Under the pieces are notes generated by a model that was given only the letters and a program-made list of their open reading frames with translations, searched no databases and was not told the origin of the DNA. A DNA stretch of 64,000 nt from Octopus vulgaris (lineage: Eukaryota), in contig OX597819.1 in the NCBI GenBank assembly GCA_951406725.2, forward strand, positions 25,296,001-25,360,000, in the 5' to 3' direction. Each line of letters begins with the position of its first letter. The first letter of the stretch is position 1. Positions 3,578-61,040 of the stretch are shown in pieces. The translations under genes and the position numbers were made by a program.

Positions 3578-4086
3578 GACATGGATGTTTCTGGGTCTTA
3601 ACCCGTCGTCAGCCCAGGATAGTGAGATCTGCTGATTGAGGCGACTGTCACGTTAAGTTGACAGTATACAACCACTCTATTGCTCCACCACCGCTCAAGT
3701 CTCTTTGAGACATTTAGAAATTCAATATTTCTAATTACGGTGACCAGTGAATAGATTTCACTGTAAATATATATGTTTGTGAAGGCTAGATAGGCGCCTC
3801 AATCAGCATATCTCACTATCCTGGGCTGATGACGGGTTATGGCCTAGAAACATGCGTGTCCTCAGGTGTGAATCTTGGCTGGTAGGGATGCTTGTCCCCC
3901 CATTCACAAATTTAAAGACACAGAAAATGTGTCAAAGCCGAAGGAAGCGTTCGATGCTTCCTAGGGATAAACAGCGGTGGTGTAATTCCCATACGGGACT
4001 GTCAAGTTAATTTGACAGTATACAATCACTCTATCACTCCACCACCGCTCATGTCTCTTTGAGACATTTAAAAATTTAATATTTCT
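3578..4086. mobile_element. PLE-terminus-like element with inverted and direct repeats and two hammerhead motifs
   Basis: 3578-3643 is an inverted copy of about 3795-3860; 3643-3733 is repeated directly at about 3997-4086, followed by (AT)n. Confidence 0.7.
3820..3866 (+). ncRNA. Type I hammerhead ribozyme (complete minimal core)
   Basis: CCTGGG-CTGATGA-C-GGGT tatg GCCT-A-GAAAC-A tgcg T-GTC|CTCAGG: 6-bp helix I, helix II, short helix III, GUC cleavage triplet ending at 3860. Confidence 0.75.
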
Positions 4087-4139
4087 GATATATATATATA
4101 TATATATATATATATATATATATATAAATACATATATCT

Positions 4140-4392
4140 TTATGTGCGCGCGTGTGTGTATGTGTATGTGTGTGTCTCTGTTCTGTGTTTATCTCCCACC
4201 ATCGCTTTGATAACTAGTGTTGGTGTGCTTACGTCACTGTAGCATAGCAGTTCGGCCAAAGAGCCCGATAAAATAATTATCAGGCTTAAAAAAAATAACT
4301 ACTGGGGTCGATTTATTCGACTAAAAAATTCCCCAAGGTGGTGCCCCAGCATGACCGCAGTCTAATGACAGAAAAGTGAAACATAAAAAGAT
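4140..4392 (+). mobile_element. SINE family A, 3' half
   Basis: Matches the 3' half of the full copy at 63570-63975 (gttcggc..aaaga, ggggtcgatt, ccagcatg.ccgcagtc.aatgac). Confidence 0.8.
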
Positions 4393-4500
4393 AGGGCTAC
4401 ATAGACATTCGTTTCTTTGAAACAGTTATAGTTGTTACATTTGGAAAAAGGAACGGCTACGTAAGGCTCCCACGTTGTCTTAGTTATGCTATAGAGTTGT

Positions 4501-6500
4501 TGAGAGTGGCAGTAGTGTGTTGTGATGAAGGTATCAGTGGGAGTGTGTGTTGTGATGAGGGTAGCAGTGGGAGTATATATTGTGATAAAGGTAGCAGTGG
4601 GAGTGTGTGTTGGGATGACGGTATCAGTGGGAGTGTGTGTTGTGATGAGGGTATCAGTGGGAGTGTGTATTGGGATGAGGGTAGCAGTGGGAGTGTGTGT
4701 TGTGATGAGGGTAGCAGTGGGAGTGTTTGTTGTGATGAGGGTATCAGTGGGAGTATATATTGTGATAAAGGTAGCAGTGGGCGTGTGTGTTGTGATGAGG
4801 GTAACAGTGGGAGTGTGTATTGTGATGAGGGTAGCAGTGGGAGTATTTGTTGTGATGAGGGTATCAGTGGGAGTATATATTGTGATAAAGGTAGCAGTGG
4901 GAGTGTGTGTTGGGATGACGGTATCAGTGGGAGTGTGTGTTGTGATGAGGGTATCAGTGGGAGTGTGTATTGTGATGAGGGTAGCAGTGGGAGTGTGTAT
5001 TGTGATGAGGGTAGCAGTGGGAGTGTTTGTTGTGATGAGGGTATCAGTGGGAGTATATATTGTGATAAAGGTAGCAGTGGGCGTGTGTGTTGTGATGAGG
5101 GTAACAGTGGGAGTGTGTATTGTGATGAGGGTAGCAGTGGGAGTATTTGTTGTGATGAGGGTATCAGTGGGAGTATATATTGTGATAAAGGTAGCAGTGG
5201 GCGTATGTGTTGTGATGAGGGTAACAGTGGGAGTGTGTATTGTGATGAGGGTAGCAGTGGGAGTGTTTGTTGTGATGAGGGTATCAGTGGGAGTATATAT
5301 TGTGATAAAGGTAGCAGTAGGAGTGTGTGTTGTGATGACGGTATCAGTGGGAGTGTGTGTTGGGATGAGGGTAGCAGTGGGAGTGTTTGTTGTGATGAAG
5401 GTATCAGTGGAAGTGTGTGTTGTGTTGAGGGTAGTAGTGGAAGTATGTGTTGTGAAGAAGGTAGCAGTGAGCAGTAGGAGTGTGTGTTGTGATAAAGGTA
5501 TCAGTGGGAGTGTGTGTTGTGATGACGGTATCAGTGGGAGTGTGTGTTGTGATGACGGTACCAGTGGGAGTGTGTATTGTGATGACGGTATCAGTGGGAG
5601 TGTGTGTTGTGATGACGGTACCAGTGGGAGTGTGCATTGTGATGAGGGTAGCAGTGGGAGTGTTTGTTGTGAGGAAAGTATCAGTGGGAGTGTGTGTTGT
5701 GTTGTGGGTAGCAGTGGGAGTGTGTGTTGTGTTGAGGGTAGTAGTGGAAGTATGTGTTGTGAAGAAGGTAGCAGTGAGCAGTAGGAGTGTGTGTTGTGAT
5801 GAGGGTAGCAGTGGGAGTATATATTGTGATAAAGGTATCAGTGGGAGTGTGTGTTGTGATGACGGTATCAGTGGGAGTGTGTATTGTGATGAGGGTAGCA
5901 GTGGGAGTGTTTGTTGTGATAATGGTAGCAGTGGGAGTTATTGTTGTATTGAAAGTATCAGTGGGAGTGTTTGTTGTGATGAAGGTAGCAGTGGGAGTAT
6001 ATATTGTGATAAAGGTAGCAGTGGGAGTGTGTGTTGTTATGAAGGTATCAGTGGGAGTGTGTGTTGTGATGAGGGTAGCAGTGGGAGTGTTTGTTGTGAT
6101 GAGGGTAGCAGTGGGAGTGTGTGTCGTGTTGGACGTAGCAGTGGGAGTGTTTGTTGTGATGAGAGTAGTAGTGGAAGTATGTGTTGTGAAGAAGGTAGCA
6201 GTGAGCAGTAGGAGTGTGTGTTGTGATAAAGGTAGCAGTGGGAGTATATATTGTGATAAAGGTATCAGTGGGAGTGTGTGTTGTGATGAAGGTATCAGTG
6301 GGAGTGTATGCTGTGATGAGGGTAGCAGTGGGAGCGTTTGTTGTGATGAGGGTAGTAGTGGGAGTGTGTGTTGTGTTGATCGTAGCAGTGGGAGTGTTTG
6401 TTGTAATGAGGGTAGTAGTGGAAGTATGTGTTGTGAAGAAGGTAGCAGTGAGCAGTAGGAGTGTGTGTTGTGATAAAGGTAGCAGTGGGAGTGTGTGTTT
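4501..6500. repeat. 30-bp minisatellite (about 65 units) with higher-order structure
   Basis: Unit gtagcagtgggagtgtgtgttgtgatgagg, aligned at 30-bp period in the sequence. 7-bp insertions occur near 5470, 5777, 6204 and 6451. Confidence 0.95.
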
Positions 6501-6929
6501 GTAATAATGATAGCAGTGTGTGAGCGTATGTGCATGTGTGTGTGTGCGTGTGTGTATGTGTGTGTGTGTTGTAATGATAACGCTAATAACGTTGGTGATG
6601 GTTGTTACGCAGATTAATGTATGTTGGTTGGGGATGTTAGTTGTTATAAAAAACAGAGGCGGTGGTAGTTGCAGGGCTGAGTTCGGAGATGAATGGGGCT
6701 AGTGGAAATAGAAGTCGTTGTAACGTTGTTGTGGGATGAATATTGTGATGAATGAACGTGTTGACTTGCGTTAATCATATTGGTAGCTGCATTGGAAACC
6801 ATAGTAATATTTGTGAGCTTTTTGAAGGTGGTCGTAGAGTGACGACAGCTGTTATGATGTAGCGGTGGTAAGAGTAGTGGTTGTAATTACAATGGTGTGT
6901 TTTGAGATGAAGTTAGTAGTAGTAGTCGT

Positions 6930-59096: not shown

Positions 59097-59330
59097 ACTG
59101 TTTGTATGTCCTTGTTTGTCCCCTCTATGTTTAGCCCCTTGTGGGCAATAAAGAAATAAGAAACGTTAGCACACCTGTCTTCACGTTCTGAGTTCAAATT
59201 CCACCGAGGTCGACTTTGCTTTTCATCCTTTCGGGATCGATAAATTAAGTACCAGTTGTGTACTGGGCTCGATCTAATTGATTGGCCCCCTTCCCCCAAA
59301 TTTCGGGCCTTGTGTCTTGAGTAGAAAAGA
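59097..59330 (+). mobile_element. SINE family B, rearranged
   Basis: Tail segment followed by the body gttctgagttcaaattcc.ccgaggtcgactttgc. Confidence 0.82.
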
Positions 59331-59928
59331 ATACTTCAAATCGCTGTTTTTTCACTATATCAATAACGGCGGATTTCGTCTTAGTATGCAGTTGCCAATG
59401 GATACTTGCTACTGACGAAGCTCAAAGCAGCAGAAATGCCCATTTAGCAAGGTCAGCGCCGCAGCTGGATGATTTTCGTCTGTTACTGATATATTTTTGT
59501 GCTATTTAACACTGTACATGTATAAGAAATTACGATAGATCGCTATATACATAACCCTGCATACACGTGTGCACGCGTGTGTGTACGTACACATACACAT
59601 TCATACATATGTATATATATATATATGTACGCGCTCATGTGTATGTATGCATGTTTGTACACATGTACACATCAGTAGAAAAATCAGCAAGTGAAATATC
59701 GGAGTGTTAAATATCCATATTTTAACCTTGATTTCATTTTTGCTTTCTTCTTTTTGTGCTATATTTTTGCAATGTAAGCGTTATCAGAGACGCGTTCGTA
59801 ATGTCCATAAAATGGCCTGACTTCTCATATTAAATCAATGTTAAATGTCTGTAAATATCTGTAACTGATTCTGACTCTGTGTTATATTTTACTTCCTTTC
59901 TTCAGAATGGTTAAATATCACTACTTCT

Positions 59929-60152
59929 CACACACACACACACACACACACACACACACACACACACACACACACACACACACACACACACACACACACA
60001 CACACACACACACACACACAGACCACACACACACACCACACACACCACACACACACACACACACACACACACCACACACACACACACACACACACACACG
60101 CTCACTCACGCACACACACACACACACACACACACACGCACACACACACACA
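59929..60152. repeat. (CA)n microsatellite
   Basis: Seen directly in the sequence. Confidence 0.95.
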
Positions 60153-60869
60153 CGCTCGCGTGCAGACTTATCACTCTCAGTTAAATTATGTTCTCACTGT
60201 GTATACTCCATTGATAATCTACATCTGAAATCAATTTCATGTAAAAATGGAAAAGAAAAAGAAACACACACATACGTATGTATACAGATATATATATATA
60301 TATATATATATATATATATGTATACTTATAAAAACATAAACACATACACATGTTACATATGCGAATACATTCATAAATAAACAGGCACATCTATACACCC
60401 CACCACACATATATTCACACACATATATAAGCGTATAGCATATAGATGTATGCATATATATATATAATGTTATAATAATGTATAATCTTTACTCTCTTAG
60501 CTGATCGAGTGCTTTTGTGCTTTTCTATTTGTAGAAGCACTACCACATAATTATATATACATAAACATACATACATTCATAAACGTATATGCATGTGCAT
60601 ATCTAGTGAGTAAAATTTAATGTACGTCTGTTACTGTGAAGGTTAGAGGTTCACATAGACTATGTTCAATCAGGCTGCTTCCAGCGTAGTGGTTAAGCTA
60701 CTACTATACTATTATTATTAGTTATGGCAAACGGAACAAATTTTGGATAAATTACGATAAACATAAGTTTATATCATCTGTTCCTACGCATGCTGCATCA
60801 TTATGATTGTTTGGAACTCTGCATTGGATATTTCCAGTGTAATTGGTTGCTAAACTACTCTGGTGAATA

Positions 60870-61040
60870 TAGTTCGGTATTTAAGAGATGGGGAATTATG
60901 TACATTATTTACATTTACATTTGACGGATAGTTGTCCACATCTTTGTTGTTAACACAACGCTTTGGCTGATGTGCTCTCCAGCCTTCGTCGGGTGTGTTG
61001 GGGAAATTTCGAACCTGGGTTCTCATTCCTAAGCTATTTT
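60870..61040 (-). mobile_element. Second copy of the 18310-18460 family, hammerhead core decayed (60953-60996)
   Basis: Minus strand ACAC-CCGACGA-A-GGCTGG..TCAGCC-AAAGC-GTT|GTGT; shared tgggttctcattcctaa. Confidence 0.7.

Follow-up and report, generated by a model that had tools for sequence, protein, structure and literature searches.

Type-I hammerhead motifs in terminal repeats of octopus Penelope-like elements and a family with a tRNA-like segment as its likely promoter

A 64,000-nt stretch of the Octopus vulgaris genome (positions 25296001-25360000 of contig OX597819.1, hereafter the window), lying within a 2.8-Gb assembly of 227 contigs, was analyzed for hammerhead ribozyme motifs. These motifs are probably minimal type-I hammerheads located in the terminal repeats of Penelope-like elements (PLEs). 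One of the families, designated C, is probably a Penelope-type element carrying a tRNA-like segment with A and B boxes, a likely promoter for RNA polymerase III (Pol III), which likely yields copies resembling short interspersed nuclear elements (SINEs). Hammerheads of PLEs, retrozymes and their origin from PLEs are already published biology; family C is a new variant.

To find the motifs, a strict type-I descriptor was used that requires the CUGANGA, GAAA and NUH core together with helices I and II; relaxed versions tolerated one core mismatch or left position 6 free. Chance was assessed on a systematic genome sample of 100 stretches of 10 kb, taken at round positions from 30 contigs (1,000,000 bases), with the reversed sample (one set) and shuffled sequence (three sets) as controls. 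The strict descriptor gave 24 matches in the sample, compared with 0 in the reversed and 0, 0 and 0 in the shuffled sets. When position 6 was freed, 35 matches stood against 1 (reversed) and 0, 0 and 1 (shuffled). Two features that the descriptor did not ask for recurred among the 24 strict matches, namely a palindromic helix III segment (15.2-16.2) in 14 and a G10.1-C11.1-type closing of helix II in 18; families A and E deviate from the latter. Hammerhead motifs occur beyond chance at the genome level.

The alternative that the motifs arose by chance, in a genome rich in AT and microsatellites, has next to no probability. The folding z-scores of single sites are weak (-2.4 to +0.2 for eight sites), and a search of the window with Rfam returned no hammerhead among the best 150 of 277 matches but microsatellite-driven miRNA matches instead, as chance would predict. 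It does apply to two places near 11600 and 12905, which an earlier note on this DNA had taken for decayed copies: no hammerhead core is present there, and the sequence occurs at only two places in the genome, both in the window. For the eight sites listed in that note, however, it is refuted by the 24 matches against 0 in the controls, and family copies with these cores number in the thousands. Covariation within family C (131 copies) was uninformative, changes being scattered as in neutral decay except at N7, one loop-2 position and CpGs.

Within the window (GC content 36.8%, 102 tandem-repeat rows; Table 1) the strict descriptor passes only 3826(+) and 59412(+), the latter absent from the earlier list, and seven sites pass when one core mismatch is tolerated. 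Hammerhead-like sequence was present at all eight listed coordinates, but its quality is uneven, some cores and helices being damaged. The hammerhead at 3820(+) is intact. Intact cores were also observed at 33451(+), where helix II is long, at 18362(-), where helix II is damaged, and at 22682(-), with one additional A at helix III. At 17910(-) A6 is replaced by U, a change that is family-wide in B. The replacement of G8 by C at 34826(-) represents decay, because relatives keep an intact core, and the core at 60953(-) is altered at two positions. The site at 3578(-) lacks the 3' strand of helix I; it is an inverted 5' piece of the insertion at 3820(+), and hence the eight listed sites are seven insertions. 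They belong to six families, two of which (B and B2) are related at ~70-75%. The density of one motif per 7-8 kb given earlier for this DNA agrees with the window (~1 per 7 kb); in the sample it is ~1 per 15 kb (68 loci of these families per Mb). The inverted and partial-tandem arrangement described earlier was recovered, A and D forming partial tandems and inverted pieces being found in the window insertions of A, D and E.

In the 1-Mb sample, loci per Mb amounted to 23 for B, 22 for B2, 17 for C, 3 for E, one each for A, G and H, and 0 for D. Scaled to 2.8 Gb, family C comes to ~48,000 loci (Poisson range ~28,000-76,000), about half of them with the tRNA-like head described below. First-look genome candidates, all lower bounds, numbered at least 2,339 for A, 920 for B, 2,468 for C, 2,866 for D and 1,185 for E. 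A TA-type tract was present at the 3' end of 9/14 B, 17/22 B2 and 0/9 C copies in the sample, compared with 7.7% of random positions; for four repeats queried as controls the figures were 1/89, 15/72, 3/110 and 0/20. Loci picked by search, not counting the window copies, gave 8/19 (A), 17/19 (B), 0/19 (C), 11/13 (D) and 7/13 (E). Targeting of (TA)n is thus a property of five families and not of C (0/28). The abutment on such tracts reported earlier for nearly all motifs holds for six of the seven window insertions, one of them via a short tract only, but not for the insertion at 60953. Copies of different families nest inside each other's TA tracts, often inverted (L022, L113, L117, L153, L230, L252).

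Families B, C and E are pseudo-long terminal repeats (pseudo-LTRs) of protein-coding PLEs of the Neptune, Penelope/Poseidon and Hydra type, respectively, clades that are given by linker and endonuclease motifs and not by a reverse transcriptase (RT) tree. In one locus (L040) the C-terminus of a GIY-YIG endonuclease is followed by a pyrimidine-rich untranslated region (UTR) and then by family B, and L036/L199 displays a pseudo-LTR, truncated RT and endonuclease, UTR, pseudo-LTR and (TA)n in this order. The linker motif of B, CX4CxxC, corresponds to that of Neptune and Nematis. U at core position 6 was found in all 20 best-hit B loci, and therefore the B ribozyme may be weak. Intact copies of B2 have a canonical core, and 13 of the 14 copies examined share one start point. 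One B2 copy extends 500 nt into a pyrimidine-rich UTR and stops short of any open reading frame (ORF); B2 probably is the pseudo-LTR of a protein-coding PLE, too. For E, two of 14 long loci (L326, L328) reach a decayed GIY-YIG endonuclease with CxCX5C, CxxC and CxH motifs. The link to PLEs proposed in the earlier note is therefore confirmed, both by RT/GIY-YIG ORFs directly upstream of B, C and E and by the PLE layout of partial tandems, inverted 5' pieces and tails. Its view of separate, non-autonomous mini-elements is not, since most families are terminal repeats of autonomous PLEs and only A and D are retrozyme-like.

Family C has an additional component that is invisible from the window, because both window copies lack it. 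Copies elsewhere in the genome contain a 78-nt head and an (AAT)n linker ahead of the hammerhead module. The order is stop codon, 31 nt, head, (AAT)n, ATG and hammerhead, and head plus linker fill nearly all of the space between one C ORF and the next. In sequence unselected for C, the head lay within 450 nt of the module in 11/11 matches, with one exception found later in L047. A pattern for the 30-nt leader of C had 190 exact matches, compared with 0 in the reversed control, and the C-terminus of GIY-YIG was found upstream of this leader. When loci were picked by the C ORF protein, the head followed 31 nt past the stop in 34 of 36 and the module was present in 30. Two C loci (L307, L313) extend 2 kb into decayed RT, which sets the minimum ORF length at 2 kb. 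Pfam matched RVT_1 in this ORF (E 2e-9) and nothing in the short C endonuclease pieces. Five RT-bearing public proteins match the C ORF at 48-63%. The frame through the module aligns with the N-terminus of P0005 (43% over 42 aa, E 1e-6), which places the C hammerhead in about ORF codons 11-24. The earlier description of the elements as non-coding consequently fails for C, but applies to A and D. C lacks a linker zinc finger as well as TA targeting. The possibility that C is a free-standing SINE was dropped once the upstream ORF appeared. Module and head are present in four contig sets from four organism labels, contigs that cannot show RNA ends, strand or expression; a metagenome scan for C relatives gave 59 pattern matches, none of them confirmed. 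Two C loci (L052, L056) have apparent target-site duplications of 12-13 bp, as seen by eye.

The head was scanned with an A/B-box consensus. A and B boxes at tRNA spacing were found in 21/36 heads with at most one mismatch per box, compared with 99/20,000 random pieces, and as exact matches in 9/36 heads compared with 9/20,000. The 5' ends of C copies coincide with the head. Among 39 head-picked copies 33 start at -8 to +4, four scored at -14 or -17 fold back at the head start when inspected by eye, and two extend into the ORF; 37/39 thus begin at the head. In unselected sequence, five of seven head-spanning C loci start at -1 to +3 and two at -33 and -44. For module-picked loci, 11/13 head matches start at -6 to +3 and two inside the head. 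This start lies ~15 nt ahead of the A box, and at type-2 promoters Pol III is expected to start ~15 nt before the A box. TTTT occurs in only 1/15 head-to-tail stretches of C, compared with 3,671/5,000 random ones. An inverted piece is present in 26/39 head-picked copies. The 3' ends cluster at module positions 148-153 (12/30) and 184-188 (7/30), ~35 nt apart and corresponding to ~125 and ~160 nt into the ORF. Copies end at these two fixed points with unrelated flanks and without the poly-A or simple-repeat 3' tail of SINEs moved by long interspersed nuclear elements (LINEs); the 3' part of the short form is the ORF start of the partner PLE itself. Hence, the short C form behaves as a SINE would, without being one of the LINE type.

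Several observations weigh against this reading of the families. No tRNA match for the head was obtained by Rfam on two head-bearing loci, relaxed ARAGORN calls only 4/36 heads, the acceptor stem of the head does not pair, and a comparison of the head with phage genomes gave no tRNA and five short chance matches. The core is intact in only 60/131 C copies, and that of B is non-canonical. A full-length tandem C copy was not found, ORF codons ~60-90 were not covered, and no partner PLE turned up for A or D. At the C start there is a short palindrome, where the cDNA could halt or fold back without any promoter. Moreover, B and B2 have preferred 5' starts without A/B boxes; a fixed start alone is therefore no pointer to Pol III. 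Transcription of C by Pol III, which we regard as likely, is deduced from DNA sequence.

An alternative is that the head is an old SINE or tRNA pseudogene carried passively in the pseudo-LTR, the element being transcribed by RNA polymerase II (Pol II) and its copies stopping by fold-back at the palindrome or at a coinciding Pol II start. The starts of B and B2 without boxes are what this would predict, many inversion junctions do lie on the palindrome, and the (AAT)n after the head is the same tail as that on LINE 3' ends in this genome. However, C copies that do not fold back have the same start point, next to unrelated flanks, and the distance from the start to the A box is the one named above. 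In addition, the head is seldom found without the module, and TTTT is scarce in head, module and ORF. We consider passive carriage unlikely, and retain the head as the likely promoter.

How far such a transcript would extend was judged from TTTT runs. The aligned parts of the C ORF contain 13 runs in 39,304 nt, one position being common to 2/5 copies, whereas six other PLE families (one copy each, seven ORF pieces) contain 38 in 8,727 nt. In a synonymous-codon shuffle the best C copy had 0 runs compared with 2.8 expected (P = 0.028), and five other copies gave P values of 0.08 to 0.70; the copies are not independent. The depletion is no more than suggestive of transcription of the whole ORF by Pol III. 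In its boldest form, C would be transcribed end to end from the captured tRNA promoter, its 2-kb ORF purged of TTTT, and one RNA would give rise both to full copies and to a hammerhead SINE of 25,000-50,000 copies with the parent still attached. We put this forward tentatively and think it more doubtful than probable. Alternatively, the short C copies may stem from separate non-autonomous SINE source genes, that is, truncated copies that kept the promoter and are moved in trans by the PLE. Such an origin can hold together with C being a promoter-bearing PLE, the sole difference being where the RNA comes from. Copies that begin at the head exceed those with ORF sequence by a factor of more than ten (37 versus 2 of 39), a truncated copy retains both boxes and the binding region, and two common variants are located at the free positions N7 and loop 2. 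On the other hand, no variant specific to short copies was shown, and long and short copies alike look old (86-92% to each other). Separate source genes remain a serious contender, only somewhat short of an even chance.

Families A and D are built differently. In 20 loci, family A consists of a 354-nt unit in partial tandems of 1.1-1.9 units, whose ends lie at position 38 or 93 and which are accompanied by inverted 5' pieces. Its longest ATG frame is 52 aa, and one core is common to 26/28 hammerhead copies. D forms partial tandems like those of A, its period being 456-469 nt. Hammerheads in direct tandem, two per locus, were observed in 2/20 A loci (L006, L012) and 1/14 D loci (L214), with no long arrays among the loci fetched. 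No PLE ORF belonging to A or D was found in 48 A, D and E loci, the sole match (L002) being an unrelated neighbor, and neither family resembled the ends of the young and second PLE families described below. A and D fit non-LTR retrozymes with a PLE-style layout. A motif resembling the B box, unaccompanied by an A box, is present in both A (3643-3996) and D (L209:1224-1693); TTTT is absent from the A unit. At 684-1000 the window contains an inverted-repeat fragment of the D tail sequence without a hammerhead, between TA/TACA tracts.

The non-coding partial tandems of A and D, and the two A loci with a direct tandem of hammerheads, are what would be expected if all six families were independent non-coding retrozymes replicating through hammerhead-cut circular RNAs. 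For the set as a whole this is very improbable. B, C and E run on into PLE ORFs and hence are not the ORF-independent non-coding tandem units that characterize retrozymes. The short copies of B, B2, C and E hold a single hammerhead, and therefore no unit can be released by double cleavage. Furthermore, copy ends were not enriched at the predicted cut, neither 5' starts (B 0/16, B2 0/38, C 2/21) nor 3' ends (A 1/55, C 1/139, D and E none), which fits uncleaved templates. The single A case is the inverted piece at 3578, which ends exactly on the cut and is a possible footprint of cleavage in vivo.

The mechanism that we propose for terminal repeats of PLEs draws on in vitro work with a Poseidon element of Anolis. 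The PLE protein would bind the first ~170 nt of its ORF RNA, GIY-YIG would nick AT-rich DNA, and RT would start internally. If it started at the first site behind the RNA 5' end, only the sequence from the start site to the tail would be copied, and abundant short copies would result; a start at the next tandem site would produce long ones. Because RT would start behind the RNA 5' end, both the fixed starts of C and B2 copies and the preferred one of B could arise without separate mini-element genes. For A and D, mobilization would occur in trans, through a PLE. Reverse transcription probably proceeds on uncleaved RNA, and the hammerheads probably are weak, dimer- or protein-dependent cutters. 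Across families, fixed 3' ends with an optional tail of ~35-55 nt were observed.

Most of the finding concerns expected PLE hammerheads and retrozymes, in a lineage for which the literature searched does not describe them. Solo pseudo-LTRs dominate PLE copy numbers, and family C suggests a general cause, an RT that starts just behind the RNA 5' end. It also ties a Pol III-type head to a PLE instead of a LINE, with the head built into the parent element. A whole-ORF Pol III transcript, if real, would be an unusual route to a retrotransposon mRNA and raises the question of how uncapped RNA is translated.

Further PLEs with hammerhead-like motifs were encountered. A young PLE with a 4,271-bp tandem unit contains two overlapping ORFs of 454 and 775 aa, with RT and GIY-YIG (G000:C1:27838001-27858000, L191-L192; L161-L190). 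It has at least 15,739 first-look candidates, and the 775-aa frame is open in many copies, which puts hammerhead function and mobilization in trans within practical reach of in vitro tests. Its pseudo-LTR has a hammerhead-like fold with U4 changed to C in 30 matches over 30 loci. In a second PLE family (L230-L253), a tiny hammerhead-like motif with a 2-bp helix II and A3-U8 instead of C3-G8 lies ~330 nt past the stop; 24 loci gave five exact matches, and more with small changes. The 1-Mb sample (L061-L160) contains at least eight further hammerhead types with palindromic helix III loops of 6-8 nt, and a 545-nt direct pair in L106.

Table 1. Hammerhead-bearing insertions and related features of the window
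Feature	Position	Strand	Remarks
Family A, inverted 5'-truncated piece	3578-3649	-	3' end exactly on predicted cleavage nucleotide; helix I incomplete
Family A, one 354-nt non-coding unit with 93-nt partial-tandem tail, (TA)n end	3643-4089	+	Intact hammerhead 3820-3866, predicted cut after 3860
Local inverted duplication (11567-11761 / 12759-12952)	11567-12952		No core; not a repeat family
Decayed PLE RT and GIY-YIG remnant	12301-14240	+	83-85% identity to young high-copy PLE family of the genome; inverted pseudo-LTR piece 11949-12111
Family H, inverted pair with two hammerhead-like cores (16963 -, 17012 +), long helix II	16800-17176		Absent from earlier list; one relative in 1-Mb sample
Family B, solo pseudo-LTR of Neptune-type PLE, (TA)n on both sides	17812-18016	-	Hammerhead 17910-17947, A6-to-U core
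Family C, diverged copy truncated at triplet linker, without tRNA-like head	18309-18473	-	Hammerhead 18362-18405 within first PLE ORF codons
Family D, non-coding partial tandem, period ~465-469 nt, (TA)n end	22553-23106	-	Hammerhead 22682-22742
Family D, inverted tail piece, TA-tract end	23107-23175	+	
Family E, inverted 5'-truncated piece with second, decayed hammerhead	33337-33433	-	
Family E, pseudo-LTR of Hydra-type PLE, between (TA)n tracts	33430-33776	+	Hammerhead 33451-33538
Family B2, short B-related copy, fixed 5' start, (TA)n end	34729-34929	-	Hammerhead 34826-34862, decayed G8
Family G, strict type-I hammerhead	59405-59451	+	Absent from earlier list; one relative in 1-Mb sample
Family C, copy with full 3' tail, truncated at linker, without head and TA tract	60871-61051	-	Hammerhead 60953-60996, decayed

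Outside these insertions, the window contains a minisatellite with a 30-nt unit in ~66 copies (4505-6518) and a remnant of a mariner-type transposase (55709-56251, minus strand; weak Pfam Transposase_1, E 0.027). Very abundant repeats without a hammerhead, among others at 26596-27035, 39550-40000 and 29380-30139 (~120-140, 130 and 20 loci per Mb), served as controls.

The following comparisons refer to the available portions of the cited texts. Minimal type-I hammerheads of PLE pseudo-LTRs have been characterized by a short helix I, an unpaired base after A9, G10.1-C11.1 and a palindromic helix III; they are mostly single motifs from truncated PLEs, with opposite-strand pairs 100-700 bp apart and C3-G8 core variants (Cervera and de la Pena 2014, PMC4209133). 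The octopus families share the features of helix I, A9, G10.1-C11.1 and the palindrome, the predominance of single motifs in truncated copies, as well as opposite-strand pairs and C3-G8 variants. However, the portion of that study at hand contains no cephalopod and no tRNA-like segment, and the family-wide A6-to-U of B is not among its variants. The Neptune, Penelope/Poseidon and Hydra clades have been distinguished by linker motifs and by the targeting of (TA)n (Craig et al. 2021, PMC8557442). As judged by motifs, B agrees in having CX2-5CxxC and E in having CxCX5C, CxxC and CxH, and C lacks both the linker zinc finger and TA targeting; in the same text, tRNA is mentioned only with regard to selenocysteine. 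A 2026 octopus repeat paper reports 31 recently active Penelope-like families, and the words hammerhead, ribozyme and retrozyme are absent from its main text as available (PMC13282606); its repeat library may hold the present families unnamed. In a squid genome paper, 235 Rfam hammerheads were reported without analysis (PMC6962438).

Non-LTR retrozymes are non-coding tandem units of a few hundred nt (~170-400 nt) with type-I hammerheads, proposed to be derivatives of PLE pseudo-LTRs (Cervera and de la Pena 2020, PMC7229834). A later survey found units of 51-972 nt, with no mollusc among the sampled groups in the text available (Li, Clavereau and Pollet 2026, 10.64898/2026.07.22.740005). Family A (354 nt) falls within the former range; D (456-469 nt) lies above it, yet inside that of the survey. 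Unlike retrozymes, A and D were observed only as partial tandems of 1.1-1.9 units with PLE tails and inversions, and B, C and E are ends of PLEs.

For family C, the closest system is the Poseidon element PAc of Anolis, in which the hammerhead lies inside the ORF start, RT starts inside the RNA at two sites, with initiation 111-118 nt into the ORF and a tail of 30-40 nt, the first 172 ORF nt are needed, and the RNA is copied without having been cleaved (Frangieh et al. 2024, PMC11167929). C likewise has its hammerhead in the ORF start, and its ends ~125 and ~160 nt into the ORF match the PAc pattern. In contrast to C, a pseudo-LTR promoter is assumed for PAc, and neither A/B boxes nor SINE-like offspring appear in the accessible text. 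No PLE with a tRNA-type promoter and no tRNA SINE moved by a PLE was found in the literature searched, a search whose scope excluded subscription journals, Repbase and supplements. A captured internal Pol III promoter inside a terminal repeat, as in C, is known from Cassandra; unlike C, Cassandra is a non-autonomous plant element of the LTR class, with a 5S-derived promoter and without ribozyme and ORF (10.1101/2023.07.14.548913). In the schistosome elements SMalpha and Sjalpha, a Pol III-type promoter stands beside a type-I hammerhead in a short SINE-like retroposon (PMC6765202, PMC8490949). As far as later descriptions go, these tandem repeats do not code for protein, contain a hammerhead that cleaves itself and come with no mention of a protein-coding parent, whereas in family C the promoter-like segment lies within a protein-coding PLE and the copies are dispersed monomers.

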